From Telluria sp. (GTDB taxonomy: Bacteria > Pseudomonadota > Gammaproteobacteria > Burkholderiales > Burkholderiaceae_D), in NCBI GenBank assembly GCA_049301315.1, contig JBAQKU010000373.1, forward strand, positions 3,787 through 67,786: a stretch of 64,000 nt of DNA, read 5' to 3'. The position numbers and the translations under genes are program-made. The notes under the pieces are model-generated. The model was not told where the DNA came from and ran no database searches. It saw nothing but the letters and a program-made list of their open reading frames with translations. Below are positions 5,430 through 57,450 of the stretch, in pieces. Numbering within the stretch: the first letter of the stretch is position 1; the number at the start of each line of letters is the position of its first letter.

Positions 5430-5441
5430 CACCAATCCCCT

Positions 5442-14458: not shown

Positions 14459-14797
14459 ATGGACGATCACGCCCTGCCCTTGCCTTGCAAACGGGGCCTG
14501 TCGAAAGAACAGGCGGCGGACTATCTCGGGATCGGCGTTACGCTTCTGAGCGAACTGGACATTCCCTCTATCAAACTGGGCCGACGCTGCATCTATGATC
14601 GGCTTGACCTGGACATATGGCTCGACGATACTAAGAAGCGAGGGCGGGCCGGAAAGGAAACTTTATGGCCCAACAGAGTGGTGTCTACCGAAGGCCCGAT
14701 TCAAGGCACTGGTGGATTAGTACAACCCTTCCAGACGGCAGGCGCATACGCCAAAGCTCTGGGACTGAAATCCTCGAAGACGCGCAAGCGCTCTTAG
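14459..14797 (+). CDS. AlpA/excisionase-like HTH protein
   Basis: I use the internal ATG at 14459 ([55 protein letters not shown]). Its tail overlaps the integrase start in another frame, so the 3' end is uncertain. Confidence 0.5.
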
Positions 14798-16963: not shown

Positions 16964-18379
16964 ATGGAGCTTTCGATGGGTTATGGTACAACCGATACGT
17001 GGCGCGTTTGGAGTGATCTCAGGCGCAAAGAAGATGATCTGAAATGGTGCGGACACCGGCCCGGCTCTGAGCAGCACTATGACAGCATGGGACGTGCCGC
17101 ACACGCCGCTTCCCATCTGTGCGGCTGGGGGAACGAGCAGATGGGGCGCGTGGACCGTGTGCGCCAAGCGTTAGCTGAGTCGGGACCGTCGGCGCAACAC
17201 ATGATTGCCCGAAGGCTTTCCGGCATCAACCTGTCAACGATCTGGCACATCCTCATTTCAGTGTGCGAGGATATCGCCCTGTATTACGGCGGATCGGTGG
17301 TCGCGGGCGGGCTGATCGGGGGATTCGGCGGGGCGTTCCTTGGCGGCGTTGGTGCGGTGCCAGGCGCGGCGGCCGGCGCGGCGGTCGGCAGCTATGTCGG
17401 CGGCGCGGTGTTGTCGATGCTGGGCTTGAAGTCGCTGGTCCTGGGCGTGGTCCAGTCCGTCCCCGAAGCATTGGATTACTACAAAAAAGGATTTCTCGAA
17501 GCGTGGGGGCCGACCCGGCAGGATCGCCTGCAGGGTTTCGGCATGACCGCACGAGGCAGCCCATCTTCGGCGGCGTTTTACCTGGCCCATGGCCACGTCA
17601 TCATGGTCACAACCATCCTTGCCGTGCTGCTGGCTTACGTTACCCGAGGGAAGGGCGACAAGGCGGCGCTGCTGAAGGAAATCGAACAGAGTCCGCGCCT
17701 GGGACCGAAAGTAGCGAAATGGGTCGAGCAAAACGAAGAAAAGCTACGCCATCACCCCGCGCTTCAATGGCGTGGCTCAGGAGGGGCCGGAGCACTGCCC
17801 CGTGAAGAGCCGCCCCTGCCGAGCCGCAGAGCCAGGCGGGAGCCAGAGCGCTCAAGGCCCAGTGGGATGCCGAAGAAGACGGTGCCGTGCTTCAAAACCA
17901 AGAGCTTACCTCAAGGCAGTGTGCCGGAGTTTGACCGCCAGCTCACCGGACAGGAGACGGGCATCAACAATATGACGGTTGATGAGTACCTCAACGGACG
18001 CGAGGCGTTTGAGTCAGAGAAATCGACGCGCAGTTCAAGCATTGCACGAAATGCGAGAGCTTCCTATGAAGGAAAAATGACTTTCGCTGTGGCGAAAAAA
18101 CTTCAAGAAGAAGGATTATCCTTGATAGAAGCTGACAAGAAAGCCGAACAGATAGCCGCTGAGAAAATGAAGACATTAGCGGCGCTGCATATCCCCGATA
18201 TGATTGCTGGCGGCAAGGATGTGATTGGCGACTTTGGGGATAGGAATATAAATTCGCGCATCGGAGCGCAATGGAATAAGGGAGGGCGATTGGCCGAACT
18301 CGATAAGGCTGCGAACGCTCTCCCACAAGCCATCCGCGCGATTACGAAGATGAACGTGAAGCTTGAACGGTGTAAATAA
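16964..18379 (+). CDS. Polymorphic toxin, Ntox15/Tde-like C-terminal DNase domain with glycine-zipper region (start uncertain)
   Basis: 471-aa ORF. It has a Gly-zipper stretch, GGLIGGFGGAFLGGVGAVPGAAAGAAVGSYVGG. The C-terminus has LAALHIPDMIAGGKDVIGDFGDRNINSRIGAQW with an HxxD motif, as in Agrobacterium Tde1/Tde2. Confidence 0.6.
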   Translation: MELSMGYGTTDTWRVWSDLRRKEDDLKWCGHRPGSEQHYDSMGRAAHAASHLCGWGNEQMGRVDRVRQALAESGPSAQHMIARRLSGINLSTIWHILISVCEDIALYYGGSVVAGGLIGGFGGAFLGGVGAVPGAAAGAAVGSYVGGAVLSMLGLKSLVLGVVQSVPEALDYYKKGFLEAWGPTRQDRLQGFGMTARGSPSSAAFYLAHGHVIMVTTILAVLLAYVTRGKGDKAALLKEIEQSPRLGPKVAKWVEQNEEKLRHHPALQWRGSGGAGALPREEPPLPSRRARREPERSRPSGMPKKTVPCFKTKSLPQGSVPEFDRQLTGQETGINNMTVDEYLNGREAFESEKSTRSSSIARNARASYEGKMTFAVAKKLQEEGLSLIEADKKAEQIAAEKMKTLAALHIPDMIAGGKDVIGDFGDRNINSRIGAQWNKGGRLAELDKAANALPQAIRAITKMNVKLERCK

Positions 18380-18388
18380 GGGAAAATC

Positions 18389-19006
18389 ATGGATGAAAAT
18401 TTCGCGTATTTTATAGAGAAGTTGGGTCCGGCCTTCGACAAGCGCGACGTTCCGCGGTCGAGCATCGAACGCTACCGTGGCAAGCTGCCGGATCAATTGT
18501 TGGCGTATTGGGAAGAATATGGTTGGTGCGGCTATGGAGACGGCCTGTTCTGGACCGTTAACCCCCAGGAGTACGAGCCAGCGTTAGAGGCATGGATCGG
18601 TGATACGCAATTCATGGAGCAGGATGCGTATCATATTATCGCAAGAAGCGCATTTGGAGATTTATATTTTTTCGGAGAAAAAACTGGCAGCAATCTTCAG
18701 ATTGTTGCTGCTGACGCAAATGCAATTGCCGATAGCTATAGGACATCAGATCTGAATAGGAACGTGAAGGTATTCTTTAGCGCCCTTAACAAAGCAGGTT
18801 GTGATCATAGTGATGTTGATGGCGTCAAACTTTTCGCTCGCGCATTAAAAAAATTGGGCCGACAAAAGCATGATGAAATATATGGTTTCGTGCCCGCACT
18901 AGCTCTCGGCGGCCCCGCCACGCTGGATCACTTGCAAAGAGTCAAAGCTGTAGAGCATTTAGTCCTACTTGCCCAGCTCGCGCCATTGAACGTGATTTCC
19001 GTCTAG
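18389..19006 (+). CDS. Cognate immunity protein, GAD-like + DUF1851-type (Tdi-like)
   Basis: 205 aa, starting 10 nt after the toxin stop. Strings such as LPDQLLAYWEEYGWCGYGDGLFWTVNP and AFGDLYFF are typical of GAD-like/DUF1851 immunity proteins as I remember them. Confidence 0.6.
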   Translation: MDENFAYFIEKLGPAFDKRDVPRSSIERYRGKLPDQLLAYWEEYGWCGYGDGLFWTVNPQEYEPALEAWIGDTQFMEQDAYHIIARSAFGDLYFFGEKTGSNLQIVAADANAIADSYRTSDLNRNVKVFFSALNKAGCDHSDVDGVKLFARALKKLGRQKHDEIYGFVPALALGGPATLDHLQRVKAVEHLVLLAQLAPLNVISV

Positions 19007-19401: not shown

Positions 19402-19704
19402 ATGACAAACGTTGTGAAATTTCCGGGCGTAAATGTTGTTACATCGCCCGCTGTTCCGGAGACCGTCCAGCCTGTTAAGAAGGAAAACTCCCCCGTCTTA
19501 CTCAAGTTCGTTTGGGTGGTCGTCGTCTTGCTTTGGCCTATCCTGAAATGGGTGATGTCGATTGATTGTGTCGTCCAATTGCTTCGGACCATGTACTACT
19601 GGAATACTGCTGGTGTGCATGCCGGCTGGACCTTTATTCTCCACTTTGCTGCGCTGACTGCGCTGACGTTCTTCGTGTCCGCCTACAAACCGAAAGGGCT
19701 TTGA
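19402..19704 (+). CDS. Small membrane protein, KleE-like (from memory)
   Basis: ATG at 19402 follows a GGAGG. The protein begins MTNVVKFPG and has two hydrophobic segments (LKFVWVVVVLLWPILKWV, WTFILHFAALTALTFFV). It sits just upstream of korB. Confidence 0.45.
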   Translation: MTNVVKFPGVNVVTSPAVPETVQPVKKENSPVLLKFVWVVVVLLWPILKWVMSIDCVVQLLRTMYYWNTAGVHAGWTFILHFAALTALTFFVSAYKPKGL

Positions 19705-19721
19705 TTCACGTACATAATTTG

Positions 19722-20774
19722 ATGGCAGTCACGCGAAACGAATTCGACGAAACAGGGCAATCACATGACGACCGACGCGGCATGAAAAATGACGACAACG
19801 ATATGGCGAGAACAAGGATTGGCGCTCAGCAGGTTGAAGGAAGGGCACTAGGGAAAGCAGCGATCAACGGCGCCCCCCTAATGATCGACATTGACCTTGT
19901 CGACGAAGATCCTGAACAACCGCGCACCAAGGACAATCCTGGATTCTCCGCCGCCAGTATTGCCGAGCTGGCGGCATCCTACGGCCCAAAGGGTCCCAAG
20001 TCGCCTATATCATTGCGTGACAACCCCGATGCTCCCGGTCGCTTCATTATCAACCATGGATCTCGGCGCTGCCGCGCTGCGAAAGTCAAAGGACTGAGGA
20101 CCATCCCGTCATTCATCGACAATGACTACCAACAGATCGACCAGGTGATCGAAAACCTGCAACGCGATGCGCTGACACCGCGCGAAATCGCCGACTGGAT
20201 TGGCCGTGAACTGGCGAAGGGCCAAAAGAAAAGGGAAATAGCGAAGGCGCTCGGAAAGTCGCCTTCGTTCGTTTCGCAGCACGCAACGCTTTTGGACCTG
20301 CCCGATCCGATAGCCAGTGTGTTCAGTGCGGGTCGGGTAAACGATGTGACCGTGATAAACGAACTGGTGACGGCGTTCAAGAAGAACCCGAATGAGGTGA
20401 CCTCGTGGCTAACCGACGAACACCAGGATGTGACTCGGACTGAGGTCAAGCTGTTGCGCGCGTACCTTGACGAGAAGCTTGCGAACGAGCGATCCAATTC
20501 AAGTCCAGGTGAAAGACCTGGCGGAGCGCCCCAACCCACTGAGCTGCCAGCACAAGACGGCGGGAGGAAGGACAAAGAGGCTGCACCCGAGATGTTTAAA
20601 AAAGCGATCGTTCGGGTTGAACACAGCGAGCGGCTTGCACGCCTGATTCTTACCCGCCGTCCGCCCTCAGATGGCTACGCTTGGCTGAAATACGAAGATG
20701 ATGATCACGAGCTTGAGGTGTGTTTGGCAGACGTGAAATTGGTGGCCCTGCTGGACGGCGAACACCGCTCCTAA
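19722..20774 (+). CDS. korB: KorB (ParB-family global regulator/partition protein of IncP-1 type)
   Basis: 350 aa from the ATG at 19722. By eye it is colinear with RK2 KorB: DLVDEDPEQPRTKDNPGFS, RFIINHGSRRCRAAK, VIENLQRDALTPREIADWIGRELAKG, LILTRRPPSDGYAWLKYEDD. Confidence 0.9.
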   Translation: MAVTRNEFDETGQSHDDRRGMKNDDNDMARTRIGAQQVEGRALGKAAINGAPLMIDIDLVDEDPEQPRTKDNPGFSAASIAELAASYGPKGPKSPISLRDNPDAPGRFIINHGSRRCRAAKVKGLRTIPSFIDNDYQQIDQVIENLQRDALTPREIADWIGRELAKGQKKREIAKALGKSPSFVSQHATLLDLPDPIASVFSAGRVNDVTVINELVTAFKKNPNEVTSWLTDEHQDVTRTEVKLLRAYLDEKLANERSNSSPGERPGGAPQPTELPAQDGGRKDKEAAPEMFKKAIVRVEHSERLARLILTRRPPSDGYAWLKYEDDDHELEVCLADVKLVALLDGEHRS

Positions 20775-21275: not shown

Positions 21276-21899
21276 GTGAACAGTCAGAAAGAACAAATAC
21301 CTCAGCAAACCAGAGCCGCCCAGCAGGCCATCAATAGCGCCAGCGATGCGGAAGCCCAGGCCGATAGCCTCCTGGAACGTGCTCATGAGCTAACCGAACA
21401 AGCTGGCCGGCTGGATACGCTCTCGGTCGAAACACAATACAGCACCGCCCTCGCTGCCCAGGTCGAAAGCAAGCATGACCAGGCCGAACGCATTGAGGAC
21501 AGGCTAGAAAATCTGATTGAGCAGCAGTCCTCTCGCCTGCAGCAAGCCAGGGCACAGCAGCCAGGACTCATCGCCCTCCCTGGCTCCCGCTCCAAGTGGC
21601 AGCAGCAAGTACAGCAGCAACAAGGCACGTTGCAGCGCCTTCAAGGGCGCCTGGAGTTAGTCCGCGAGATCAAGGACGGCATGGGTGTCCACGGGGCGCA
21701 TATCGAGGAATTGGCTGCCCGCAAATTACGTCGGTTGGCCCCTGGCCTTGCCAGCGAATGGGACGAACAGCAGGAAGCGCAGCGCCAGCACATGGCCATG
21801 CTGCGCAAGAAGGAGCAGGAACACCGGCAATCGCAGGGTCTTGCAGGTGGAAAGGGCTGGTCCTTGTCGAACACGCTTAATGGTCGCAATCCCAGTTGA
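21276..21899 (+). CDS. Gln/Glu/Arg-rich coiled-coil protein (KfrA/KfrC-position gene)
   Basis: 207 aa. The GTG start follows GGAGG at 6-nt spacing. The sequence is heptad-like and Q/E/R/L-rich throughout. An OB operator lies immediately upstream. Confidence 0.5.
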   Translation: MNSQKEQIPQQTRAAQQAINSASDAEAQADSLLERAHELTEQAGRLDTLSVETQYSTALAAQVESKHDQAERIEDRLENLIEQQSSRLQQARAQQPGLIALPGSRSKWQQQVQQQQGTLQRLQGRLELVREIKDGMGVHGAHIEELAARKLRRLAPGLASEWDEQQEAQRQHMAMLRKKEQEHRQSQGLAGGKGWSLSNTLNGRNPS

Positions 21900-22128
21900 C
21901 AGACACCTCGCCGCAGGGGAGCATGCCCGTGTGGTACGATATTGCTCGCAGGGAATGCAGTCGACGGCAAGGCGCGGTGCGCCGGCTGTCTTGACGTCGC
22001 CAGGGCAGCACTGTCGCCCTGGCCTGGCCGGGCGGGTGACAATCGGCCGCCGCGCCACCTCCGCAACGCATTGCCCTTGGCCCTACTTATCGACACGCGT
22101 GCTACCCGTCAACCATTACCGCCAGCCC

Positions 22129-23694
22129 ATGAGCAATTCCGCCACGCCAGCTACCAATGCCCTGACCTTGCAGCAGCAGATCGTGCGCCGCAAGCTGAAC
22201 GACGACATGGTCAAGATCCTCAACCGTCGTCCCGCTTCCCCGCTGGACCGGTTTGCCCACAACGTCGTCGCCGCCAGCGACTGGATTGTCGACGAACAGC
22301 CGGTCAGGTTGCTACCGCTGGCGCTGTGTCAGCTGATCTCGCTACAGCAGCGCGACGTCGGCAACGCCCTGATCGAAGAAACTCGTGCACTGAACAACCA
22401 GTATGTCGGCTGCAGCTTCCGGACGGCCGAGGTGATGCTGGCCGGCGATCCGGACTTTCTCGACCTCCACGCACGCGCCCAGGCTTGGGGCGAGGACGTG
22501 GCCCGGCAGGTCAACTTCAAGCTGCGTCACCAGGCGCGCAATGATCCTTACCGGACTTTCTTTAGCGCCTACGACTCGATCATCGCGCCGATTGACATGA
22601 CCATCGTGCACGGCAAGGAGCGCCTGTACTCGATGGTGTGGGAAACCGTCATCGACCTCCTGCCGTACCAGCTGCTTGACTCGATGGTGTTCAAGCCGGG
22701 CCACTGCACGCTGTCCCACGATGCGACCGCAGCGCACGTGCCCGAGCTCACGCTGGCGTGCGACATGCCGTCGCCACGGGACCGGGAACGCTTCAACACC
22801 GTAATCAGCTTGTATGCGGTGGAATCGGTAGCGTACATGGACAACGTCGTACTTACCCCGCTGCTGGCGGCGTTGCGCCAAGACCACACCATGCCGGGGT
22901 GCAAAGAAGAGCGCCTGCAATACCAACAGATGTTCACCGACATGCTGGAAGCCTATCCATACCTGATGTCGAGCGACCGCGCCGAACGCTACATGTTCAG
23001 CATCCCCGGGACGAGCTGCATGGCGGCATTCTCGTTCCTGTCCCCAAGCGGCTGCGCTAGAATCATGTTCTGCGATGACGCCGAGAGCCTGCGCCGCGGC
23101 CTGCACACGAATTTCATGCGGGGCGCTTTGAATGTCGGGTACGATGGGCAAATCAAATGGTGGATGCATCCTTGGCGCACGCTCGACGCCGTGTTTGGTC
23201 CGGAAGACGCCGTGACCCTCTCTTGGTGGCTGCTCAAGCAGGTCCACGGGCAGCTGGTCAAGGACTATCTCAATATTGAGCATTATTACCTGCATGGGAC
23301 CAATGCGCAGACCGCGGAACCGGCAGCGTGCGACCTGCGGGATGAAACCCTGCTGTACGTGGCCCTGGCCAAGGCGTCGAAAAGGGAGGACGCCGCAGCC
23401 GACGCCGATCTCGCCGAGTCCCCCGCGGGACCGCATGCGGACGCTGGCAGCGCGTCGAGCATGCTGCCGCAGTTGCGCAGGCGCTACTTCTTCAAGCTAC
23501 TAGAACATTGCGGCGTCCAGGTCGCACAGGGCAAGGGATCGGAAATCAAGTTGCTGCGCAAGACCAAGAGGCCATTCCGGCTCGGTAATCACTACGGCAG
23601 CAACCCCACCATTCCCGCTTTTCTCGCTGCGAATATCCTCAAACGCCTCGACATCACGCACGAGGAATGGGTAGACGCGATCGCCGCCAGCTAA
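22129..23694 (+). CDS. Hypothetical 521-aa protein with HicA-like C-terminal ~70 aa
   Basis: I chose the ATG at 22129; the track ORF starts at 21685 but overlaps the preceding gene. The C-terminus is FFKLLEHCGVQVAQGKGSEIKLLRKTKRPFRLGNHYGSNPTIPAFLAANILKRLDIT, which follows the HicA/YcfA pattern. Confidence 0.5.
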   Translation: MSNSATPATNALTLQQQIVRRKLNDDMVKILNRRPASPLDRFAHNVVAASDWIVDEQPVRLLPLALCQLISLQQRDVGNALIEETRALNNQYVGCSFRTAEVMLAGDPDFLDLHARAQAWGEDVARQVNFKLRHQARNDPYRTFFSAYDSIIAPIDMTIVHGKERLYSMVWETVIDLLPYQLLDSMVFKPGHCTLSHDATAAHVPELTLACDMPSPRDRERFNTVISLYAVESVAYMDNVVLTPLLAALRQDHTMPGCKEERLQYQQMFTDMLEAYPYLMSSDRAERYMFSIPGTSCMAAFSFLSPSGCARIMFCDDAESLRRGLHTNFMRGALNVGYDGQIKWWMHPWRTLDAVFGPEDAVTLSWWLLKQVHGQLVKDYLNIEHYYLHGTNAQTAEPAACDLRDETLLYVALAKASKREDAAADADLAESPAGPHADAGSASSMLPQLRRRYFFKLLEHCGVQVAQGKGSEIKLLRKTKRPFRLGNHYGSNPTIPAFLAANILKRLDITHEEWVDAIAAS

Positions 23695-24202
23695 CGGCCA
23701 GTGCGGTCCCGGCACCCCTGCGGGCACGCTACCGGAAGCCGCGCCGGCGGTGTGCAACGCCAGCGGGTCATTCCGCTGCCGCAGCCGAGCTTACGCGGCA
23801 GATACTCCCAAAGCCTTCTAGTCTTGAGAACGGACAGGGTGCCCGTCAGCGCTGTCCGGTCATCAATGCGCGGTCGGCCACCTGTCGAACAGACGGTGAA
23901 TTGGGCATGAGCATCGAAAAAGGAGTAGAGCTCGTAGGGAAGGAGTGCTGGGCTATGGCGTCAGTTCCGGCTGAGGAAATACACGTCATGGAAATACGCT
24001 GCCCGTGACGACCTCCGGTGCCTACGGACTGGAGGCTTGTACTTCCGGTTTACGACCCAGTGCGGCCGTGACGACGTTAGATGCTTCCAAATGCACGCTC
24101 TTTGTCAGTCCGCTTTGGGTCGAAGGAAACGGTCAGCCAAGCGGCCGTTTTGATCGACCGTTTTCGCCCCCAAGGAGTCATTGGATTTTCTCCGACGCTG
24201 AC

Positions 24203-24260
24203 ATTTAACGTCAAAGCTCACGGGCGGCCGAAGGCCGTCCGGTGGAGCGCGAGGTTAGAT
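24203..24260 (-). repeat. attC site (58 nt)
   Basis: The minus strand reads ATCTAAC-CTCGC-GCTCCAC-(20 nt)-GTGAGC-TTTGAC-GTTAAAT. The L boxes pair except for one bulged C on the ORF-proximal arm. The 554-aa ORF reads through this site. Confidence 0.75.
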
Positions 24261-25875
24261 TCACCTCTCGGACCTTCAAGACCACGCTCGCAACATCCTT
24301 GACTAGAGCGCGTGCTTGCGGAGCCGTTACTTCAGCTCTGGTATGAGCTATCCGATTCCTCAGTGCCACGTGGGCGCGAAGCTGTGTGTAAAGCTTCGGT
24401 TCAAGAATTTCGCGCGATTTCGCAAACTCGAGTAGCTGACCCAAGCTTGATCTAGTCATGAACTTGTCGAATCCGGCGATTTCCATGTTCTGCCGGAGCT
24501 CATGTTCCAGCAAAGAGAACGCCGCGATGACCGCGGCTCGGTATTCCTTCTTGGCAATGAGGCGGCTCGGTTCATCTTCCAATGCCGGAGAGAGTTTCTG
24601 AAAGGCAGCCGCAAAAGCGGACTCAAGCGCCTTTAGAAAAGTGGTCGATTCACCGTCTAGTGTGCGAGGCCTGCGGATGACTAGATGCATTCCAAGATCA
24701 AATGGAACGCTAGCGTCATCCTCTACAATTAGGATCAGCGGCTTGGCCATTCCTTCTTTGGATAGAACCATTCCCACTTCGAATACCGTGTTTGGTGAGC
24801 TCAGGTCCGCAACAACAACAGCAGACTTCTCGATCAGTGCGTAGACCTTAGCCATTAGGCTATCGCCCGGCGCGATCACTTCAGCCGCCATAACAGGACT
24901 GAAGCCGTACTGTTCGGCAATCGGGTAGACGCGTGCCTTATACAGCGCTGCATACCGCGTAGGCACTGAAAAGAATGCTAGGCGACTCTGGGCACTTGGA
25001 GGAAGCGACAGTTCGGCTTGCGGTTCGAGCTCAGTTGAGGTGCTTTGGGAGATCACCTGTGAAGTCCAGTACTCTCGAAGTTCCCGAAAAACGGCCTCAA
25101 GTACCTCTGCGTAAGACTTTGAGGAACTCTTGGGGAGGTTAATGACCTTGACTCCTCGCCGTTCGTAACGCGCTACGAGGTTCGCAGGAGCCCCAACTTG
25201 CAGTACATACGCGGGGCGGCGTAGGGCGCCGAGCCTCTCTTTGACCACTTGCCAGATTTGGCGAAAGTCCGGATCGTCAAGGCTGTATCCAATGAAGAAC
25301 GCCGTGTGGTCAATGAGCAGGCTTGCCAAATGAGTTGCGAGCAGAGGCAGGCTGTTCAAGAACGCGTCATAGTCTTCTTCTGTTACGACAAGGCGATTGG
25401 GGTGGTGCAGGTCGCCGTGAAGTTTCAAAAGCCGCACGCCCGCTTGGGGGTCGCCTACTGCGAGTTGATCTTCTGCCACTAGGGGAATGCAATACCTGTT
25501 CAGTTTCGCGTAGGCCTGTTCAAGTAGGAAATCAAAGTTGGTCGTGACTACTCTATCAAACGGTAGGCGGCAGAATTCTTCGTGGGTCTTTGCAGGTTGG
25601 ATGCTGGCGATGAGCAGTGCAGAGGACAGAAACTCTACGAGTTTCACTCTTGAAAACTCGTGAGAGTACGCCGACAGCGCTTCTAGCGCGGTTGTGTACT
25701 GGTACTCTGGAAGCGCCGCGGCCACCTGCTTCCCTAATCCGTCCCAATCGAGCATCTTCTTGCCTCTCGGGATCTTGGCATTGAGCGAGAAGCCGGCTCC
25801 GACAAAGGGGAGGCATCGCCCACGAACGATGTCTTCTAGGAAAGGTGCAGGGAAGTGGCTTATGTAGTCGGGCAT
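24211..25875 (-). CDS. SIR2-family (SIR2_2-type) protein fused to a TIR/NDT-like Rossmannoid module and a C-terminal HEPN-like domain
   Basis: 554 aa. SIR2-type strings are LPFVGAGFS, VVTTNFD and LLKLHGDLHHP. The middle module reads AVVVADLSSPNTVFEVGMVL...PLILIVEDDASVPFDLG. The C-terminal helical region carries ALRNRIAH (Rx4H). Confidence 0.7.
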   Translation of the reverse strand: MPDYISHFPAPFLEDIVRGRCLPFVGAGFSLNAKIPRGKKMLDWDGLGKQVAAALPEYQYTTALEALSAYSHEFSRVKLVEFLSSALLIASIQPAKTHEEFCRLPFDRVVTTNFDFLLEQAYAKLNRYCIPLVAEDQLAVGDPQAGVRLLKLHGDLHHPNRLVVTEEDYDAFLNSLPLLATHLASLLIDHTAFFIGYSLDDPDFRQIWQVVKERLGALRRPAYVLQVGAPANLVARYERRGVKVINLPKSSSKSYAEVLEAVFRELREYWTSQVISQSTSTELEPQAELSLPPSAQSRLAFFSVPTRYAALYKARVYPIAEQYGFSPVMAAEVIAPGDSLMAKVYALIEKSAVVVADLSSPNTVFEVGMVLSKEGMAKPLILIVEDDASVPFDLGMHLVIRRPRTLDGESTTFLKALESAFAAAFQKLSPALEDEPSRLIAKKEYRAAVIAAFSLLEHELRQNMEIAGFDKFMTRSSLGQLLEFAKSREILEPKLYTQLRAHVALRNRIAHTRAEVTAPQARALVKDVASVVLKVREVNLTSRSTGRPSAAREL

Positions 25876-25893
25876 CTGTGAGTGTATTGGCGA

Positions 25894-25980
25894 ATCTAAC
25901 GTAGAGCTAACCGGCGCTGCGCAGCTTTATCGCGCAGCGGCCAGCGACCGAAGGGAGCGAGGTTCAGCGCCATGTTAGAT
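25894..25980 (-). repeat. attC site (87 nt)
   Basis: The minus strand reads ATCTAAC-ATGGC-GCTGAACC-(48 nt)-GGTTAGC-TCTAC-GTTAGAT, with one bulged base in the ORF-proximal L box. The TAA stop of the 320-aa ORF lies inside the RYYYAAC box. Confidence 0.8.
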
Positions 25981-26937
25981 TTCGTGTTCACCGCTTGGAT
26001 TTCTGTTGGTCAGCCCGATCAGGCGCTTAGTAAGCTTTCCGCGGAGATCTCGTAAGTTGTCATAGTCGGGGCAATTGTAGCCAGCAAGGTCAAAGTGAAG
26101 GCCCGTGCCGGACTTGCGAAATAGAATCACGCGCTTGCCAAGAGCATGAGCAAAACCAACCTCATAGTAGACGTTTGGTCTTGCCCCAGTCAGATCGGCG
26201 AATAGGAATTCAGAAGTGTGGATTTCAGAGAGAATTCTGTCCGTGATAAGGCCCTCGTGTTCGATATCGTCGGCCCGCAAGGCCTTAATACCAAAGCACG
26301 AAAATACTGATTTCACCGTATCCGCAACGTCAGTAAGCTCAGGAAGTTTTTGATCCATCCACATCATGATGAATGCCGTGCCTGCACGGTACTTAGTAGG
26401 CGCTACGGTTGTACCAGACGGCAGCATAGCCGCTTCGAACTCCCTTCCCGATTCGACTAGCTTTAGTACAGTGCGGAGTTTGGATAGACCGTCAAAAAAG
26501 ACTTTTTCGGCCTCTATGGGTACTAAGCCAAGTCTCTCGGATTGTTCTGCTGGTCGGAACCCGAGAACTCTGTCCTCGTCATGTATTACGTGGGGTTCTT
26601 GATACTGATAGCGTCTTAGTAGAAGGGCCGCCCGCATGGCTTTCGCGGCATTCTTCACATCCTGCACATCTTCATTTCCAGTAAGGGGCGCCGCTTTCGC
26701 AACTTGCGCAACTTGAGCGGCAATACGCAGTAGGCGATCAGAGATGCCGTTAGCAATGTCTTTCGTGGGATTGGCAAGTAGCTCCCAAAGGTCGGCAACC
26801 TCGTAATCTATGCCCCACCCAAAAGGGCCTTGCTTTGCATGTGGCTCACACTCAACCTTCGCTTGGCGGAAGTAGCCTTCTGCATCGCCTGCGATTGAGG
26901 CAACTTCGGCGGAAACGTCTAGATGTTCGGTCGCCAT
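25975..26937 (-). CDS. Hypothetical cassette protein: helical N-terminal half + TIR/NDT-like Rossmannoid C-terminal module
   Basis: 320 aa. The C-terminal AFIMMWMD...FLFADLTGARPNVYYEVGFAHALGKRVILFRKSGTGLHFDLAG aligns by eye with the middle module of the 554-aa SIR2 protein. Confidence 0.6.
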   Translation of the reverse strand: MATEHLDVSAEVASIAGDAEGYFRQAKVECEPHAKQGPFGWGIDYEVADLWELLANPTKDIANGISDRLLRIAAQVAQVAKAAPLTGNEDVQDVKNAAKAMRAALLLRRYQYQEPHVIHDEDRVLGFRPAEQSERLGLVPIEAEKVFFDGLSKLRTVLKLVESGREFEAAMLPSGTTVAPTKYRAGTAFIMMWMDQKLPELTDVADTVKSVFSCFGIKALRADDIEHEGLITDRILSEIHTSEFLFADLTGARPNVYYEVGFAHALGKRVILFRKSGTGLHFDLAGYNCPDYDNLRDLRGKLTKRLIGLTNRNPSGEHEI

Positions 26938-26950: not shown

Positions 26951-27006
26951 ATTTAACGTTGCGGTTCAGCGGCGCCGCAGGCGTCCGCTGGAATATGTGG
27001 TTGGGC
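26951..27006 (-). repeat. attC site (56 nt)
   Basis: The minus strand reads GCCCAAC-CACAT-ATTCCAGC-(16 nt)-GCTGAAC-CGCAAC-GTTAAAT. It has classic 59-base-element size and geometry, with a bulged C that gives an extrahelical G on the bottom strand. Confidence 0.85.
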
Positions 27007-27014: not shown

Positions 27015-27275
27015 TCATTTAGTGTGGCGCTCCAAGAATGCGACCGCTTTTTCGGTTAGCTTGAGCGGTTGAGGGCCTCCACCTTCAACAAAATCAGTCA
27101 TGCGGCCGACCGACCAGGATTCGACGGTTCCGTCAACAAATACAAGTCCATGGTCGTCACCTCGGTAGTCATGCCAGTAGGAAGCTACAAGATGACCATC
27201 CCGAAGAATTTGATACTTGTATTCGTCGAAGTCTTCTCGCCTCCGTGAATTATCGCGTTCGATCGAATAGCTCAT
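27015..27275 (-). CDS. Small hypothetical cassette protein (86 aa)
   Basis: ATG at 27275 lies 6 nt downstream of a GTTGGGC core site. The longer track ORF (to 27323) would begin inside or beyond the core. No motif recognised. Confidence 0.45.
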   Translation of the reverse strand: MSYSIERDNSRRREDFDEYKYQILRDGHLVASYWHDYRGDDHGLVFVDGTVESWSVGRMTDFVEGGGPQPLKLTEKAVAFLERHTK

Positions 27276-27730
27276 GATGGGGCCCAACTGGTACTTATAC
27301 AAACAGGACGGGCCGGTATGCATGGTGGAAGGCTGATAAACACTTTGGTCTGTTCCTCCAGAAGCCGCACCAGTGCTAGCTTCGGCATCAAACTGTATAT
27401 GCGCACAGTGCTAAATTATCGTGAAACACGTCACACCCGAGAACGTTCGCCACAACCGCCAAAACTGTTCGATCAGCGAGTCGTTACATTAAGGAATTAT
27501 TGCAGTCTACGTACTGAATGCGCCTGTGTCTACTGGACAAGATGGAACGTTTGGTTTGATTGTCCGAATAAATAAATTTAGTCACCAGGCGGATGACTGC
27601 TCCTGGCCGGTTCCGGCCGGTCGTGACAGTCCGTGATTTTTCCAACGTAGCAAGATGCTATGCTATATCAAACGGCCGGGTTCGGCCAGAAGCGGACAGT
27701 AGGAGGAGCTATACTAATTGATCAGCTTCG

Positions 27731-28660
27731 ATGAAGGAAACAGCGATGTCGCGTCTAGGTATAGATGTCAACACAGGGCTAGTGTACGAGGGCCGCACTG
27801 GGCCAACTCATCCAGTCTGGCCGTCACCGCCAGTTTGCAACGCAACCTCGCTCGAAACGCCAAGTGATTTGCAAAAAGTTCCGCGAAGCTTTACAAGTGA
27901 TCCTTTCGGTTGGATTTTTGTTGAGACATCCTTCGATTTTGGTACGAGGGTTCGGCGCGGCAGGTTATACCAAAATTTTGGCAATGTGAGCAAGGAAACG
28001 GTTCAAGTTGAGGCCCATCCGGCTGTTCACTCCGACCTGATTAAGGCTGCAAATAATGGATGGCGCGTTCCGAAGGAACTGACGGTCTACATCGAGGGCA
28101 CGGACCTACTTCTCCGGCGCATTAGAGGTGAAGGTGCAAGAATAGCATTAGGACAAGCTGATGCCTATTCCGTCTGGAAAATCGTTCAGGTAGAGCGTTC
28201 CCTTGGATCTGATGTGCTTCTCACACTGCGTGCTGAATCAGCGTTAGGCATATTGCCGGAACTTGACACTACCAGAATCAATCCGTCAAATTTCGCAACC
28301 GTGAAGTCAGCATACGATCGGGCTTTGGACGCCGCTTATCGAGAACTTCCAACATCAGTCGTTGACCAATGTCGAAACGCGGCTGTTGTATTCATTTCGA
28401 GGTGGATGCAACAGGAGGAAGGTTTGGAATTGCCCTTAGAAAAGGATCTTGGCGCTTGGATCAAAGCGATACAGATCCGGTTTGGCGAAAGGGAAAAGGT
28501 AGCGCTTCGCTCCACCTTAGAAATCATCGCCAAACTTCATTCCAGGGGCAAGGATAATGAACGACATAAAATGTCGCTAAGGACGGTGGAAGAGGATGAT
28601 GCAGCACTCGTCGTACAAGCGCTAGGATTCATATTGCGCGAGATTGGATGGGCCGCTTGA
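27731..28660 (+). CDS. Hypothetical 309-aa protein (alternative start 27746)
   Basis: Clean ORF in the AT-richer cargo block, 176 nt upstream of the Gabija-like pair. GAAGGAAA precedes the second ATG (27746). I recognise no family. Confidence 0.5.
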   Translation: MKETAMSRLGIDVNTGLVYEGRTGPTHPVWPSPPVCNATSLETPSDLQKVPRSFTSDPFGWIFVETSFDFGTRVRRGRLYQNFGNVSKETVQVEAHPAVHSDLIKAANNGWRVPKELTVYIEGTDLLLRRIRGEGARIALGQADAYSVWKIVQVERSLGSDVLLTLRAESALGILPELDTTRINPSNFATVKSAYDRALDAAYRELPTSVVDQCRNAAVVFISRWMQQEEGLELPLEKDLGAWIKAIQIRFGEREKVALRSTLEIIAKLHSRGKDNERHKMSLRTVEEDDAALVVQALGFILREIGWAA

Positions 28661-28836: not shown

Positions 28837-30540
28837 GTGAAAATTAGAAGAATAACTATCAAGAACTTTCGCGGCGTTAAGGAGCTTGAATGGAGTTTGC
28901 CAGCAAGCGATATTTTCTGCTTGATTGGCAAGGGCGACTCTTCCAAGTCCACTATTCTGGAGGCCATTCGTTATGCCTTCTACCCTCAATGGAATCCCAT
29001 TTTTACCGACGCAGATTTCCACCAGTGCAAGGTTGACGACAGCATTATCATTGAAGTGACCTTTGGCGATTTGATACCCGACTTCTGCTCATTGCAAAAA
29101 TATGGCAATCATCAACGGGGCTGGGATAAGGCAACCCAGACGCTCGTTGATGAAGAGGTTGATCCCTTGGAGCCGGTCCTGACGGTTCGCCTGACTGTCG
29201 GCAAGGAACTGGAACCAAAGTGGGTCATCTATACTGATCGGACCCCTGAAGGCGTGCCGTTCAAGCAAGCAGATCGCAACAAGGTCAGTGTTGGGCTGAT
29301 CGGTGCTTACAGTGAGAGGCAGCTATCGTGGGCGACTGGCACGGCACTGGCGAAACTGACCGAAGCCCAAAGCTTGAACGAGCTCTTGGCTACCGCCTCC
29401 AGAACTGCCCGCACGTCGCTGGACGTCGACCGCCTGGTAACGCTCAAGAATTTTGACGCTGCTGCTGAGAAGTCGCAGGTTATAGCCAAGCTCCTTGGCG
29501 TGCCGGTCAACACCTCATACCAGGCGCACTTGGATTTAAGTTCTATCAACCTGAAGGTGGGTGGCTTGGCACTGCATGATGGCGACATTCCACTGCGTCA
29601 GTTAGGCTTGGGCTCTCGGCGCATGCTCCTGTGCGGGATTCAACAAGTAGGCTTGGACGACGGCCACATCACCTTGTTTGACGAGGTTGAATTCGGCTTG
29701 GAGCCGCACCGAATTTCTCGCCTCATCAAGCATGTAAGGGAAGACAAGCGGGGTCAATATTTCCTGACGACGCATTCGCCTGTTGTGCTGCGTGAGCTCA
29801 CCGTGAAGGAGCTTTACATCGTCCACAGCAAGGCCGGTGTCGTTAAAATCATTCCTGCCTTTTCTGAAAGCTTGTCAGAGCATGAGGCTCAAGGAAAAAT
29901 TCGTTCAAGCGCTGAAGCGTTCTTGGCGAAAAAGGTCATCGTCTGTGAAGGTGCCACTGAGGTTGGATTTCTGAGAGGATTTGATGACTACCAAGTGCGG
30001 AAGGGAGGTGATCCGTTTTCCTATCATGGTGTCGCACTGCTCGATGTAAGGGGCGGCAGTAAGGTCAAGGCAATGGGGAGAGCTTTCCATTTCCTCTGCT
30101 ACCAAGCATGCGTGTTTGCCGACGCTGATGCAGACGATCAATTTTCCCCTGCCGACAAAGCTGAGTTGGAAAAACTTGGGGTGCCCGTGTACGTCTGGGA
30201 CGACAAGCTGTCGTTGGAGCAGCGGCTCTTCCAGGACTTGCCATGGGCCAGCGTCCTTGCCAGTGTAAAACTTGCTAAAGAACTGGCTTATGTGGTCCAC
30301 AACCAGATTCATTCAAAGTTTCAAGAGGACTTGGACAAGGACATGGGCCTTTGGGAAGACACCCCAAAACTACGAACGGCCATCGGTTTGGCTGCAAAGA
30401 AAGGCGAGTGGTTCAAAGACATTACGCGAGGCGACAAGTGGTTCTCAACCATAAGCCCGGCGTTTGCAGATCCGAATTTTGCAGAAAAGGACACTGCCTT
30501 AAAGCTGGCCCTGCTGTGGACATGGGCCTCCAATGTCTGA
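28837..30540 (+). CDS. gajA: GajA-like OLD-family ATPase + TOPRIM nuclease
   Basis: 567 aa, GTG start. It has ITIKNFRGVKEL...LIGKGDSSKST (P-loop variant), FDEVEFGLEPH (Walker B region), and TOPRIM VIVCEGATEVGFL plus VFADADADD. Confidence 0.75.
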   Translation: MKIRRITIKNFRGVKELEWSLPASDIFCLIGKGDSSKSTILEAIRYAFYPQWNPIFTDADFHQCKVDDSIIIEVTFGDLIPDFCSLQKYGNHQRGWDKATQTLVDEEVDPLEPVLTVRLTVGKELEPKWVIYTDRTPEGVPFKQADRNKVSVGLIGAYSERQLSWATGTALAKLTEAQSLNELLATASRTARTSLDVDRLVTLKNFDAAAEKSQVIAKLLGVPVNTSYQAHLDLSSINLKVGGLALHDGDIPLRQLGLGSRRMLLCGIQQVGLDDGHITLFDEVEFGLEPHRISRLIKHVREDKRGQYFLTTHSPVVLRELTVKELYIVHSKAGVVKIIPAFSESLSEHEAQGKIRSSAEAFLAKKVIVCEGATEVGFLRGFDDYQVRKGGDPFSYHGVALLDVRGGSKVKAMGRAFHFLCYQACVFADADADDQFSPADKAELEKLGVPVYVWDDKLSLEQRLFQDLPWASVLASVKLAKELAYVVHNQIHSKFQEDLDKDMGLWEDTPKLRTAIGLAAKKGEWFKDITRGDKWFSTISPAFADPNFAEKDTALKLALLWTWASNV

Positions 30541-31966
30541 TGAACTGGCAATCACGCTTGGAAATTGCACGACCAAAGGGTATGTAATTGCCCCCGCTGG
30601 ATACGGCAAGACCCATCTGATTGCCATGGCGGTGAAAACCGCCAACCAGAGGCAGCTAATCTTGACGCACACGTTTGCGGGTGTGAATTCAATCAAGGCC
30701 AAGATGGCGGCTTTGAAGGTGCCAGCCTCGCAATACCAGGTTGACACGATAGCCAGTTGGTCGCTGCGGTTGTGCTTGGCCTATCCCAAGGGTTCGGGTT
30801 GGAAGGTGGATAGCCCTTCAAGCAAGCAGTGGGACAAGCTCTATGAATCCTGCTCGGGCCTGCTTACCAAGGCGTTCATACGGCACATTATCTTGTGCAG
30901 TTATGCCGGCGTCTACGTGGACGAATATCAAGACTGCTCAGACCTCCAGCACCTACTGGTGTGTAGGTTGGCCGACATCCTCCCATGTCGTGTCCTGGGC
31001 GACCCCATGCAGGCTATTTTTGACTTTGAGAATGGCCAGAAGCCAGTTGACTGGGACGCTAGTATTTATCCCCACTTTGAGTGTCTTGGGAAGCTGGAGA
31101 CGCCATGGCGCTGGGACAATGCAAAAGCGCCTTTGCTTGGCGCCTGGTTAAAGAAGTGTCGTGAACGGTTGGAGAAAGGTATGAAGCTTGATCTCGTCAA
31201 TGGGGTGCCAGTGAGCGTGACGCGGGTCTACACTGGACCGGACTTCCTTCCTCAGAATCAATACACCTCGCTCATGAAGTTGTTTAACACCGAAGGCTCG
31301 GTCATTGCTCTTCACGGCGGCGATCAACTGCTCAAAGCAAAGACGCACGCTCTGGCTCGTATGTTGAGCGGGAAGTTCTCGTCTATTGAAGAAGTTGAAG
31401 GGAAGGCACTTCATTCCATCATCAAAAAACTTGTGACAGCCAAGAGTACCAAAGCGGCCTTTCTTCATGCGTTGGATTTTGCGAAGAAGTGTTTCACGGG
31501 TGTAGACAATGCTCTTGCGGCAGGAACAAAAAAAGGCGAAGTCGCCAAGCAGATTAAGACAACGAAGTATCCGTTTATGTTGAAGGCGGCTAATCTTTAT
31601 CTAAGTGACCCAACCACGAAAAACCTGAACGCCTTCTTCCTGGAACTAAAAGAGAATCCAGGAACGTCACCTTTTAGAAGGGACTTGTTCTACCGTTTCC
31701 TGAATGTTTTGAAAATGCATATTGATGGTGAGGGCGACACGTTGAATGATTCAGCGAAGCTCTACCAGCGTGATATGAGGCATACCGGCAGGCCAATCCG
31801 TCATACGAAGCTCATTGGCACCACGTTGTTGGTGAAAGGCTTGGAATACGACCATGCGATTATTTTGGACGCCGATAGTCTTGACGCAAAAGACCTGTAT
31901 GTTGCCATGACCCGTGGCGCAAAATCGTTGACGATCATTTTTACAGGCAATCCGCTTCCAGTTTAA
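30533..31966 (+). CDS. gajB: GajB-like UvrD-family helicase
   Basis: 477 aa with an 8-nt overlap with the gajA-like gene. It has APAGYGKTH (Walker A), VYVDEYQD (motif II), and LVKGLEYDHAIIL / VAMTRGAKSLTII (motif VI region). Confidence 0.75.
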   Translation: MSDELAITLGNCTTKGYVIAPAGYGKTHLIAMAVKTANQRQLILTHTFAGVNSIKAKMAALKVPASQYQVDTIASWSLRLCLAYPKGSGWKVDSPSSKQWDKLYESCSGLLTKAFIRHIILCSYAGVYVDEYQDCSDLQHLLVCRLADILPCRVLGDPMQAIFDFENGQKPVDWDASIYPHFECLGKLETPWRWDNAKAPLLGAWLKKCRERLEKGMKLDLVNGVPVSVTRVYTGPDFLPQNQYTSLMKLFNTEGSVIALHGGDQLLKAKTHALARMLSGKFSSIEEVEGKALHSIIKKLVTAKSTKAAFLHALDFAKKCFTGVDNALAAGTKKGEVAKQIKTTKYPFMLKAANLYLSDPTTKNLNAFFLELKENPGTSPFRRDLFYRFLNVLKMHIDGEGDTLNDSAKLYQRDMRHTGRPIRHTKLIGTTLLVKGLEYDHAIILDADSLDAKDLYVAMTRGAKSLTIIFTGNPLPV

Positions 31967-33281: not shown

Positions 33282-33728
33282 TTAATGATGGGCAGCCCAT
33301 AGCGCGATTCCCGCCGCTGCCATCGTAATACACGCGGCGAATACGTTCAGGATGGCGATGCGACGGGCAACCCGGACAGGCACGGCCACCCTGACCAACG
33401 CCTCATCAATTTCAGCGCCAATCTTGACAGCTGATGCTTTCGCAGCCTCGTCTAGCATGTGCCCCATTGCCTCCTTGCTGGCCGTCAGTGAGGCGTTGAG
33501 GATGCGCTCCGCCTTTCCCTTGGCGTCATCCCCCCATCGAGCAGCCAGCGCCTCCAGTTCTTCCTTGAAATGGTCGAGCATGACCTGCTGGGCTTTGGCG
33601 CTGTCCAGCAAGAGGCGATTATTGATGGTTTGCAGGACCAAGATCGGATCGTCACGCGACACCGCGATGCCATGCCGGGTGGCGATTTCGCGGATGATTT
33701 CCTCAAGCTGTTCGCGCTCATCCATCAA
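33282..33728 (-). CDS. traM: TraM-like relaxosome/leader operon protein
   Basis: 148 aa with a 4-nt overlap with traL. Size and position match RP4 TraM, and the C-terminus has a TM segment. Confidence 0.65.
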   Translation of the reverse strand: MMDEREQLEEIIREIATRHGIAVSRDDPILVLQTINNRLLLDSAKAQQVMLDHFKEELEALAARWGDDAKGKAERILNASLTASKEAMGHMLDEAAKASAVKIGAEIDEALVRVAVPVRVARRIAILNVFAACITMAAAGIALWAAHH

Positions 33729-34450
33729 AGCACCGCAGCGTTCTCAAGCTGGGCGTAGACCTGGCCTTTGATGATTTTCAGGCGCTGGCGCGTCATGATC
33801 GTTCGGGATTCCATGGCGATCGCCTCGTCGAAGGTGAGCCGGTCCTGGAGCATATCGCTCAGGTCGCGGCCGTACGTTTCTTTCTTAAGCGCCGGAATCT
33901 GGATGATGGCCGACACCCTCGCCTTGTTAGACGTGTATGCCTTCATCTGCTCGAACCCCTTTCCGTCATGCTGAATCTGCCCCCAGTACGGATTCAACCA
34001 AACGACGAACAGCGCTTCGGACGGAAACTGGCTGGCCAGCTGCGAGAATCCGCTGATCGTATCGAGCAGCGCCTGGCCGCCCGTGACGACAGTGTGCACA
34101 ACGAGATCGTGGCCCATATCCCTGAGGAGCGCCGGCACCTGATTGCTAATGAGAAAATGCGACAAGGGCACGAAGGAGCTGGCGCCGTTGTCGATGATCA
34201 CGTCGCCCTTTGACACGGCGATCATTTCGACCAGGGTATCGAAGCTGCGCGGGTCGATCTCATCCGCTTCCATGATCTGCAGACGTTGGACCTGCAGTGC
34301 CTTGTAGCCGAAAAAGGTTGCATTGACCGGATCGGTGTCTATGCAAGACGGTTCCTGTCCCTTCTCAACCTTGTATTGCGCGAGGAAGGCTGCGGCGACC
34401 GATTTCCCTACGCCGCCTTTCCCTTGCAGAATTACGTGAATTTTAGACAT
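33725..34450 (-). CDS. traL: TraL, ParA/MinD-like ATPase of the leader operon
   Basis: 241 aa, the same length as RP4 TraL. It has the deviant Walker A ILQGKGGVGKS. Confidence 0.85.
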   Translation of the reverse strand: MSKIHVILQGKGGVGKSVAAAFLAQYKVEKGQEPSCIDTDPVNATFFGYKALQVQRLQIMEADEIDPRSFDTLVEMIAVSKGDVIIDNGASSFVPLSHFLISNQVPALLRDMGHDLVVHTVVTGGQALLDTISGFSQLASQFPSEALFVVWLNPYWGQIQHDGKGFEQMKAYTSNKARVSAIIQIPALKKETYGRDLSDMLQDRLTFDEAIAMESRTIMTRQRLKIIKGQVYAQLENAAVL

Positions 34451-44788: not shown

Positions 44789-44819
44789 CGCCAACCCACG
44801 CAGGTTGGCGTTTTTGTTT
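44789..44819 (+). terminator. Rho-independent terminator after traC
   Basis: CGCCAACC-cacgca-GGTTGGCG followed by TTTTTGTTT. Confidence 0.65.
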
Positions 44820-57449: not shown

Positions 57450-57450
57450 G

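Follow-up and report, generated by a model that had tools for sequence, protein, structure and literature searches.

SIR2 NADases and HEPN RNases are among the commonest executioner modules of bacterial immunity, where they are normally placed under separate sensor domains or partners. ThsA, the effector of type I Thoeris, is a SIR2-SLOG protein with several deposited structures (6lhx, 8bto, 8wc0, and 7uxt), and DSR1 and DSR2 are single-gene SIR2 NADase defense proteins. Csm6/Csx1 (CARF-HEPN), TIR-STING, and TIR-SAVED (Cap12) proteins feature a Rossmannoid nucleotide-handling domain that is joined to a killing domain. HEPN domains are also found in HepT, from the MNT-HEPN (type VII) systems (7ae9, 5yep, and 6m6w). 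Integron cassettes have been documented as reservoirs for anti-phage genes (bioRxiv 10.1101/2024.07.02.601686; PMC13434031). The subject of this analysis is a gene in a 64,000-nucleotide stretch of contig JBAQKU010000373.1 from Telluria sp., hereafter the window. The gene lies in an integron-type cassette and encodes a 554-residue protein with a predicted SIR2 domain, a TIR/nucleoside 2-deoxyribosyltransferase (NDT)-like middle domain, and a HEPN domain. It constitutes an unnamed SIR2-based single-gene candidate defense system that is apparently undescribed.

Judged by analogy, the protein most resembles a ThsA or a DSR2 to which a HEPN arm has been added. ThsA is the best sequence and structure match to the N-terminal 280 residues and has the same Asn and His motifs (TTNxD and HGD), the same order of SIR2 followed by a Rossmannoid domain, and a similar size. 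However, the second domain of the window protein is TIR/NDT-like instead of SLOG/STALD (type I) or Macro (type II), an extra HEPN domain is present, and an adjacent ThsB is absent from > 90% of the family loci. The likeness to the DSR proteins is confined to the SIR2 part (NCBIfam Dsr2, E 4e-22), whereas DSR proteins have ~1,000–1,250 amino acids with a long helical sensor region (~700 residues, C-terminal) and feature neither a TIR-like nor a HEPN domain. The NCBIfam scores of 78 bits for Dsr2 and 30 bits for Dsr1, each against a cut-off of 1,400, place the window protein outside DSR1/2. Unlike Csm6/Csx1, TIR-STING, and TIR-SAVED, it lacks CARF, SAVED, and STING domains, no cyclase is associated with it, and two effector-type domains flank its Rossmannoid domain. 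HepT proteins provide the closest HEPN sequences with solved structures, but there is no MNT antitoxin gene here and the HEPN domain is the C-terminal part of a 554-residue protein. The resemblance to the integron anti-phage cassettes (BRiCs and the defense cassettes of sedentary chromosomal integrons) lies in a single candidate gene that is bounded by attC sites and has no promoter of its own. The cassette differs from these in being large, at 1.69 kb, compared with the typically small antiphage proteins described in PMC13434031, and in belonging to an array that has no IntI or attI and is located on a conjugative element.

The preliminary description of this locus held that the fusion did not correspond to a known architecture, and this was upheld by the searches: no full-length model for the architecture is present in PADLOC v2 (2023) or NCBIfam 20. 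A full-text literature search returned no description of the SIR2-TIR-like-HEPN combination, with a mention in Burroughs et al. 2015 (NAR, nucleotide-centric conflict systems) being possible. The architecture is likewise not described in the HEPN survey (PMC3710099), the NAD-ADPr survey, the SIRim preprint, or the 2026 review, and no SIR2 cassette is mentioned in the two integron-defense papers. Since SIR2, TIR, and HEPN domains are expected to be reshuffled as modules, the combination is not a conceptual surprise. Its significance lies in the joining of SIR2 and HEPN to a TIR/NDT-like domain in ~550 residues, as a compact architecture that is widespread. If the protein is protective against phage, it would add a compact and portable single-gene system, it would provide a tractable model for one regulatory domain that gates two enzymes, and it may reveal a new ligand-receptor or catalytic role of TIR/NDT-like folds. 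That a conjugative element carries the gene in the form of an attC cassette also makes it a large multi-domain example for the emerging view of integron cassettes as libraries of defense genes.

The reading frame at 24211–25875 on the minus strand is a genuine conserved gene. All of the motifs quoted in the preliminary description are found in the 554-residue translation at the positions given for them: CLPFVGAGFS (21–30), VVTTNFD (109–115), LLKLHGDLHHP (149–159), AFFSVP (300–305), AVVVADLSSPNTVFEVGMVL (352–371), PLILIVEDDASVPFDLG (379–395), and ALRNRIAH (504–511). A word-indexed protein search with this translation retrieved 1,504 proteins at E <= 1e-3, and the best 120 of these are nearly all 530–560 residues long and 48–100% identical over 90–100% of the query. 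One database entry, P0004 ('SIR2 family protein', from a Telluria sp. metagenome-assembled genome (MAG)), is 100% identical to the window protein and is annotated by NCBI with 514 residues. Residues 1–40, including the GAGFS loop, are absent from that annotation and are kept across homologues; this conservation of the first 40 residues indicates that the 554-residue start is the correct one. The full-length AlphaFold model has a predicted local distance difference test (pLDDT) score of 76.9.

The N-terminal domain falls, by its sequence, in the ThsA/DSR2/KomC clade of NADases with the catalytic Asn and His kept, and hydrolase activity is predicted for it. Pfam SIR2_2 (PF13289) matches residues 108–239 with 91.4 bits, above its gathering score of 24.5 (E 7.1e-26), and the same family is matched by all 30 homologues tested. 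The PADLOC models ThsA1 (E 2.5e-30, residues 6–225) and Dsr2 (E 2.4e-23) match the SIR2 part only. Comparison of the family profile with the PDB returned ThsA (7uxt, E 1.4e-21; 6lhx, E 2.1e-18) as well as KomC and DSR2. The GAGFS loop is located at residues 26–30, and the catalytic residues are Asn113 and His153; the TTNFD and HGD motifs that contain them align to TTNYD and HGD of BcThsA (6lhx), in which the equivalents are N112 and H152. Foldseek searches with the full-length model gave ThsA and DSR2 as the best matches (ThsA 8bto, E 3e-12), and the SIR2 domain of DSR2 (8wyc_D) superposes on the model with a template modeling (TM) score of 0.78 and a root-mean-square deviation of 3.3 Å. N113, H153, G154, and D155 are conserved in 100% of 103 non-redundant full-length members, the set to which the residue frequencies below also refer.

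The middle domain is predicted to adopt a TIR/NDT-like fold. Sequence comparison barely places this domain and a fold search was therefore needed. The AlphaFold 2 (AF2) model of residues 296–554 has a pLDDT of 88.5 and shows a beta-alpha-beta layout in the middle domain. Foldseek matches on the TIR side are TLR1 (E 9.6e-5), TLR10, TLR6, MyD88, SfSTING (E 1e-3), AbTir, BtTir, PdTIR, and the SPARTA TIR; those on the side of the NDT superfamily are MilB (E 2.8e-4), DNPH1 (E 6.8e-4), BcmB, and NDT 8pqt. These matches range from E 1e-4 to 6e-3 with target TM scores of 0.56–0.66, and the TIR matches, at E 1e-4 to 5e-3 and target TM scores of 0.56–0.65, have a probability of 1.0. The SLOG domain of ThsA is not among the best 50 Foldseek matches of the 296–554 model, and the middle domain is of neither the SLOG/STALD nor the Macro type. 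Pfam searches gave sub-threshold hits in a few family members to CAP12-PCTIR_TIR (best E 2.5e-4), TIR_2 (E 6e-4), TIR, and Nuc_deoxyrib_tr, the last of these (PF05014) being weak and found in one member (E 0.007–0.05). No TIR or NDT Pfam model reached its gathering score among the members scanned, and the remaining matches are isolated, sub-threshold, and to unrelated families. HMMER comparison of a close-homologue profile of the middle domain with the PDB returned nothing at E up to 10. A broader profile reached Cap12 at E 1.1, in a weak alignment that puts E366 on the Glu of NVVFEFG in the Cap12/SfSTING TIR domain; a match of the same profile to a de novo TIM barrel is an artefact. The domain was also aligned by hhalign to the TIR/NDT-like domain of the protein encoded in the neighboring cassette, with a probability of 70% and E 4e-5, and here E366 falls on the Glu of NVYYEVG. 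The conserved residues of the middle domain are Y312, D357, and E366. Position 357 is acidic in 99% of the members, and position 366 is E or D in 94 of the 103 (91%).

The C-terminal domain is, on sequence grounds, a HEPN domain that retains the RNxxxH RNase motif and the helix-2 Glu, and RNase activity is predicted. The R-x4-H motif is present in all 242 family domains compared, with RN in 229 of them. When 40 diverse members were compared with the Pfam families of the HEPN clan, 14 matched HEPN_RiboL-PSP (best E 1.2e-6), 13 HepT-like (1.2e-5), 12 DUF4145 (3.7e-8), and 11 Hypoth_Ymh (6.3e-5), with further matches to Swt1, to HEPN, and, weakly and in a few members, to the Csm6 HEPN domain. The window protein by itself gives marginal, sub-threshold matches to HepT-like (E 0.016–0.063), and one family fragment, P0125, scores above the HepT-like gathering score (24.0 versus 23.5 bits). 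A broad family profile placed the HEPN toxin 7ae9 at the top of its PDB matches (E 5.7e-4), followed by HepN toxins, with the alignment centered on RNxxVH. The C-terminal part of the AF2 model is all-helical with the helix order expected for HEPN. In the models, the invariant E457 is located in helix 2, which is long, and R506-N-R-I-A-H511 closes helix 3 (residues 493–511). The HEPN layout given in the HEPN survey has R-x4-6-H at the end of helix 3 (PMC3710099), and the positions of R506, H511, and E457 agree with this layout. The best 50 Foldseek matches of the 296–554 model are of TIR/NDT type and include no HEPN protein, the list being filled by the TIR-like half of the model.

The three domain assignments made in the preliminary description from motifs are supported by these results. 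The SIR2_2-type N-terminal domain is significant both by sequence (PF13289) and by structure (ThsA and DSR2 folds), the TIR/NDT-like middle module is recovered by fold matches in the pLDDT 88.5 model with weak sequence hits only to TIR, CAP12-TIR, and NDT families, and the HEPN C-terminus features an invariant RNxxxH motif and HEPN-clan profile matches in diverse relatives.

The distribution of the family was determined by an exhaustive HMMER search with residues 296–554 against 1.84 billion cluster representatives (50% identity). The TIR-like and HEPN module was found in 468 clusters at 50% identity, 197 of them at E <= 1e-10, and the family is spread over > 20 phyla, archaea included. The hits are proteins of ~530–560 residues with the module at ~296–540, or shorter N-truncated entries. 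The idea that the pair also occurs with other N-terminal domains was rejected, since the shorter hits inspected still carry the end of the SIR2 domain; in every hit inspected the module is seen only fused to SIR2. Two entries, P0189 (680 residues) and P0175 (a 407-residue fragment), feature an extra C-terminal domain of ~140 residues after HEPN that has no Pfam match and could serve as an additional sensor or adaptor. Species-representative genomes were scanned and gave 80 loci, of which 57 are full-length and from different species. These loci occur in Alpha-, Beta-, and Gammaproteobacteria, in the deltaproteobacterial lineages Desulfobacterales, Geobacteraceae, and Syntrophobacteraceae, in Bacillota, Bacteroidota, Actinomycetota, Acidobacteriota, Chloroflexota, Planctomycetota, and Nitrospirota, and in several candidate phyla; two of the 80 are archaeal, both from MAGs (Methanobacterium and Bathyarchaeota). 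The window copy is 74–78% identical to copies in Desulfosporosinus, Syntrophales, and Thermoanaerobaculia, and this identity between a betaproteobacterial copy and such distant ones points to recent horizontal transfer. The family gene is found on three large plasmids. Among viruses it is rare: a single IMG/VR contig carries it, and GenBank phages gave no full-length match. Column entropy is 2.8–3.5 bits at residues 361–435 and 466–500 compared with 0.7–2.0 in the SIR2 core, and variability within the protein is among the highest in the second half of the middle domain.

The gene is the third of three attC-bounded cassettes. The attC sites were located by reading the sequence and by DNA folding, with the pattern R'' RYYYAAC ... 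R' GTTRRRY; an ungapped-stem scanner found no attC site in the window, and a second scanner found one. Each of the three sites forms an imperfect inverted repeat in which some bases are bulged and the central spacer is unpaired, and one follows each of three co-oriented genes. The R' sequence GTTAGAT at 25894–25900 forms the 5' boundary of the SIR2 cassette, which extends over 24209–25899 (1,691 bp), and the start codon of the gene is located 18 nt past this upstream R'. The gene runs into the closing attC with its last 16 codons and its stop codon, which explains why the tail NLTSRSTGRPSAAREL is unconserved; the gap fraction is 0.76 over residues 541–554, and pLDDT is < 50 only at 549–554. 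The proposal that the gene is carried as a single cassette is borne out by attC sites that bound it on both sides, and its description as promoter-less stands as well, with no sigma-70-like site in the 18-nt leader or in the upstream attC spacer. The one sigma-70-like candidate of that strand precedes the first cassette and scores no better than chance. Profile scans of the window, other large reading frames included, found no integron integrase, and the array is consequently classed as a three-attC cluster without IntI or attI ('CALIN'). The two tyrosine recombinases of the window were considered as IntI and rejected, with 21.8 and 30.5 bits against the TIGR02249 cut-off of 265. The protein of the preceding cassette matches the PADLOC model 'Effector TIR' (PDLC00733, E 7.8e-11), Nuc_deoxyrib_tr (E 8.8e-5), and CAP12-PCTIR_TIR (E 1.8e-3). 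The G+C content falls from 0.60–0.65 to 0.50–0.56 at about 24000. Past the SIR2 attC, at 24081–24202 on the same strand, there is a 34-codon open reading frame (ORF) that ends in another ATCTAAC with no recognizable R' after it; this ORF could represent a fourth, degenerate cassette at which the array ends.

Most family copies are not cassettes. A relaxed attC scanner was applied to the related loci, with random control windows giving a 99th percentile of 15.8. It identified attC-bounded relatives in Amphritea (L008/L022) and in two loci of Desulfobacterales (L023 and L037), with downstream scores of 17–24, and a series of small ORFs in the same orientation comes after the Amphritea gene. A hit in L028 was discounted because it resembles an AT-rich hairpin. 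In Pseudomonas sp. D(2018) (L001), where there is no cassette array, GTTAGAT is found at 5975–5990, ~15–20 nt upstream of the start codon, an arrangement like that of the window, and may be a remnant of a cassette origin.

The genes around the family member vary from locus to locus. All ORFs within 3 kb of the 57 full-length loci were clustered and no neighbor family occurs in more than 4 loci; this lack of a recurring neighbor, with which the individually inspected loci agree, indicates that the gene is a stand-alone unit. A conserved small downstream gene was considered as an antitoxin and rejected, since the ORFs that follow the family gene are unrelated between L002, L005, and the window. 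Defense genes are frequent among the neighbors and include a Lamassu-like LmuB/CTD7/MC3 set in L001, a STAND NTPase of 1,267 residues in L009, and a multiubiquitin/ThiF system, dCTP deaminase, and VapC on an Agrobacterium plasmid (L011); elsewhere the immediate neighbors include DISARM, mad, type I restriction-modification (RM), Cas3, and PbeA. TIR-domain genes adjoin the family gene in six of the 80 loci by raw count, and these six belong to different phyla (L036, L047 on both sides, L052, L057, L067, and L071), with best E values of 4e-26 for TIR_2, 2e-28 for PADLOC PDC-S66, and 1e-10 for ThsB1. The family members in these six loci all have the full catalytic signature and are only 34–60% identical to each other, which suggests that the TIR pairings arose independently. 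An 'IntI-like' cluster of neighbors turned out to consist of TIR-domain proteins, and the TIR ORF of L036 features a stretch like the N-terminus of an integron integrase fused upstream.

The function that we favor, tentatively and at slightly less than an even chance, is that of a self-contained single-gene anti-phage effector of the abortive-infection type, in which NADase and RNase would be gated by the middle domain and which would move as an integron cassette and as cargo of defense islands. An abortive-infection role with a ligand-binding middle module was also proposed in the preliminary description. The protein would be auto-inhibited in uninfected cells, and an infection cue, either a nucleotide-derived ligand or a phage protein, would act via the middle domain and/or the most variable surfaces (~361–435 and ~466–500). 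The cue would lead to oligomerization, with TIR-type assembly, HEPN dimerization into a composite RNase site, and ThsA-like activation of SIR2. NAD+ hydrolysis and RNA cleavage would then proceed together and the infected cell would be halted before phage release. Precedents for such assembly are the helical filaments of ThsA, TIR assemblies, and composite HEPN dimer sites (in part from PDB entry titles). The intact SIR2 and HEPN signatures, the lack of an obligatory partner, and the mobile and defense-rich contexts are consistent with this function. Several points weigh against it. All that bears on function comes from homology and context, the protein features no obvious dedicated sensor domain, and two NAD-related folds (SIR2 and TIR-like) are paired without explanation. 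The largely conserved E366 (91% acidic) is no less compatible with an enzyme than with a passive sensor. Many homologues are located between housekeeping or metabolic genes and not in defense islands (L004 and L007). Additionally, the array has neither an integrase nor a recognizable Pc promoter, and the SIR2 gene may for this reason not be expressed here.

The role of the middle domain separates this single-gene effector from two other explanations. An unlikely one is a Thoeris-like effector, in which the middle domain replaces SLOG/Macro as the receptor for an ADP-ribose-derived signal from a separate TIR sensor that is adjacent or encoded elsewhere, and the signal would fire the SIR2 NADase and the HEPN RNase. 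The independently arisen TIR pairings described above, the position of TIR_2 level with ResIII as the commonest Pfam family among immediate neighbors (4 of 110), the TIR/NDT-like protein encoded in the upstream cassette, and the ThsA-like order of the SIR2 and Rossmannoid domains all point in this direction; however, > 90% of the loci have no TIR neighbor, TIR genes are common in defense islands, the TIR-like neighbor in the window is a separate cassette with its own attC, and the middle domain belongs to none of the SLOG, STALD, and Macro families. A catalytic middle domain, acting as a TIR-type NADase/cyclase or as a nucleotide N-glycosidase of the NDT/MilB/DNPH1 type, is quite unlikely. Such a domain would generate, in cis, a signal that activates SIR2 and HEPN, or else it would directly deplete a nucleotide pool, giving a self-signaling or triple-enzyme effector. 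TIR catalytic Glu residues were first recognized via similarity to MilB and NDT, and the fold of the middle domain matches enzymes with a catalytic Glu in this motif (MilB E103, 4ohb; DNPH1; NDT). The acidic pair at 357 and 366 is kept, and E366 aligns with the motif Glu of the neighboring cassette protein and, weakly, of Cap12/SfSTING. This position is, however, less strict than the catalytic residues of SIR2 and HEPN (100%), with 9 of the 103 members having no acidic residue there, the variability of the second half of the domain argues against catalysis, and no TIR/NDT Pfam model reaches its gathering score. A broader proposal, possible but rather doubtful, is that one polypeptide couples a nucleotide-handling domain of the TIR/NDT-like type to both a SIR2 NADase and a HEPN RNase, so that Thoeris logic is fused with CARF-HEPN logic. 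The middle domain would then read ADP-ribose-type signals, including those from unlinked or neighboring TIR sensors ('eavesdropping'), or make such a signal in cis, and the protein would represent a new anti-phage system that integron cassettes have spread among bacteria and archaea.

Two further explanations do not involve phage sensing. The HEPN survey notes HEPN proteins in integron cassettes and proposes them to be RNases of stress or dormancy (PMC3710099), which would suit a toxin for addiction to, or stabilization of, the cassette array or conjugative element. The location of the gene on such an element and the HepT/HEPN toxins of MNT-HEPN toxin-antitoxin systems as the closest HEPN sequence matches are also in line with this role, but it is improbable, with no conserved antitoxin-like partner, no MNT nucleotidyltransferase, and many copies in chromosomal, non-mobile contexts. 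Names in the source records, for example 'SIR2 family NAD-dependent protein deacylase', and a very weak NCBIfam deacylase hit (E 0.13) would suggest a housekeeping sirtuin with NAD-dependent protein deacylase activity. This is highly improbable: the domain is PF13289 instead of a classical sirtuin family, the nearest structures are the NADases ThsA, DSR2, and KomC, the family occurs patchily across phyla and has been transferred horizontally, and neither the fusion to HEPN and TIR-like domains nor the cassette and defense-island contexts fit such a role.

Table 1. Position of the SIR2/TIR-NDT-like/HEPN gene, its predicted domains, the cassette array, and other features of the window.
Feature	Position	Strand	Description
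Gene for the SIR2/TIR-NDT-like/HEPN protein	24211..25875	-	ATG-started ORF, 554 amino acids
SIR2 (SIRim/ThsA-DSR2 type) NADase domain (predicted), residues ~1-280	25036..25875	-	PF13289, ThsA/DSR2 matches
Flexible linker, residues ~281-296	24988..25035	-	pLDDT < 50 at 278-295; high-entropy block
TIR/NDT-like Rossmannoid domain (predicted) and connecting helix, residues ~297-432	24580..24987	-	AF2 sub-model, Foldseek
HEPN domain (predicted), residues ~433-545	24241..24579	-	R-x4-H, HEPN-clan Pfam, helix layout
attC closing the SIR2 cassette	24203..24260	-	ATCTAAC...GTTAAAT, bulged inverted repeat
attC of the preceding cassette	25894..25980	-	ATCTAAC ATGGC GCTGAAC ... GGTTAGC TCTAC GTTAGAT; fold -24.2 kcal/mol, z -2.6
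attC of the first cassette	26951..27006	-	GCCCAAC...GTTAAAT
Cassette directly upstream, 320-residue protein	25975-26937	-	Unassigned N-terminal region and C-terminal TIR/NDT-like domain
First cassette, 102-residue protein	27015-27323	-	No Pfam, PADLOC, or NCBIfam hit
OLD-family AAA_15/TOPRIM nuclease	232-2301		
Type III RM endonuclease and methylase	2409-7352		
DUF4391 and SNF2/DrmD-like helicase	7349-11301		Helicase of 1,064 amino acids
Two non-integron tyrosine recombinases	12308-13543, 14665-15735		
Polymorphic-toxin pair	16964-19006	+	DUF6861-Ntox15 toxin (471 amino acids), then GAD-like/Tdi1 immunity protein (205 amino acids)
Conjugative backbone	35594-40092, 52870-61843, 19566-20774, 33725-34450		TraI/MobP relaxase (540 bits), TraG (1,127 bits), TrbL, TrbI, TrbE/VirB4, KorB, ParA-like
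669-residue ORF beside the array	21685-23694	+	No family hit; G+C 0.60-0.65
309-residue ORF between Gabija and the array	27731-28660		No family hit
Gabija pair	28837-31966	+	GajA-like (AAA_15/AAA_21 and OLD-like TOPRIM, 567 amino acids), GajB-like (UvrD helicase, 477 amino acids)
1,207-residue protein	41035-44658	+	ArdC N-terminal anti-restriction domain, zincin-like metallopeptidase, DUF5710 repeats, Toprim
Type I RM HsdR/HsdS/HsdM	44805-52135		With an inserted AAA_13 gene

As a whole, the window represents an integrative conjugative element or a region like a plasmid, and its defense cargo comprises the OLD-family nuclease, the type III and type I RM systems, DUF4391 with the SNF2 helicase, and Gabija. 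The large ArdC-zincin protein is probably a transferred anti-defense or primase protein of the conjugative element. Long ORFs overlap on both strands around 21685–23694, which makes the coding frame there uncertain. The Gabija pair is located 3 kb from the SIR2 gene.

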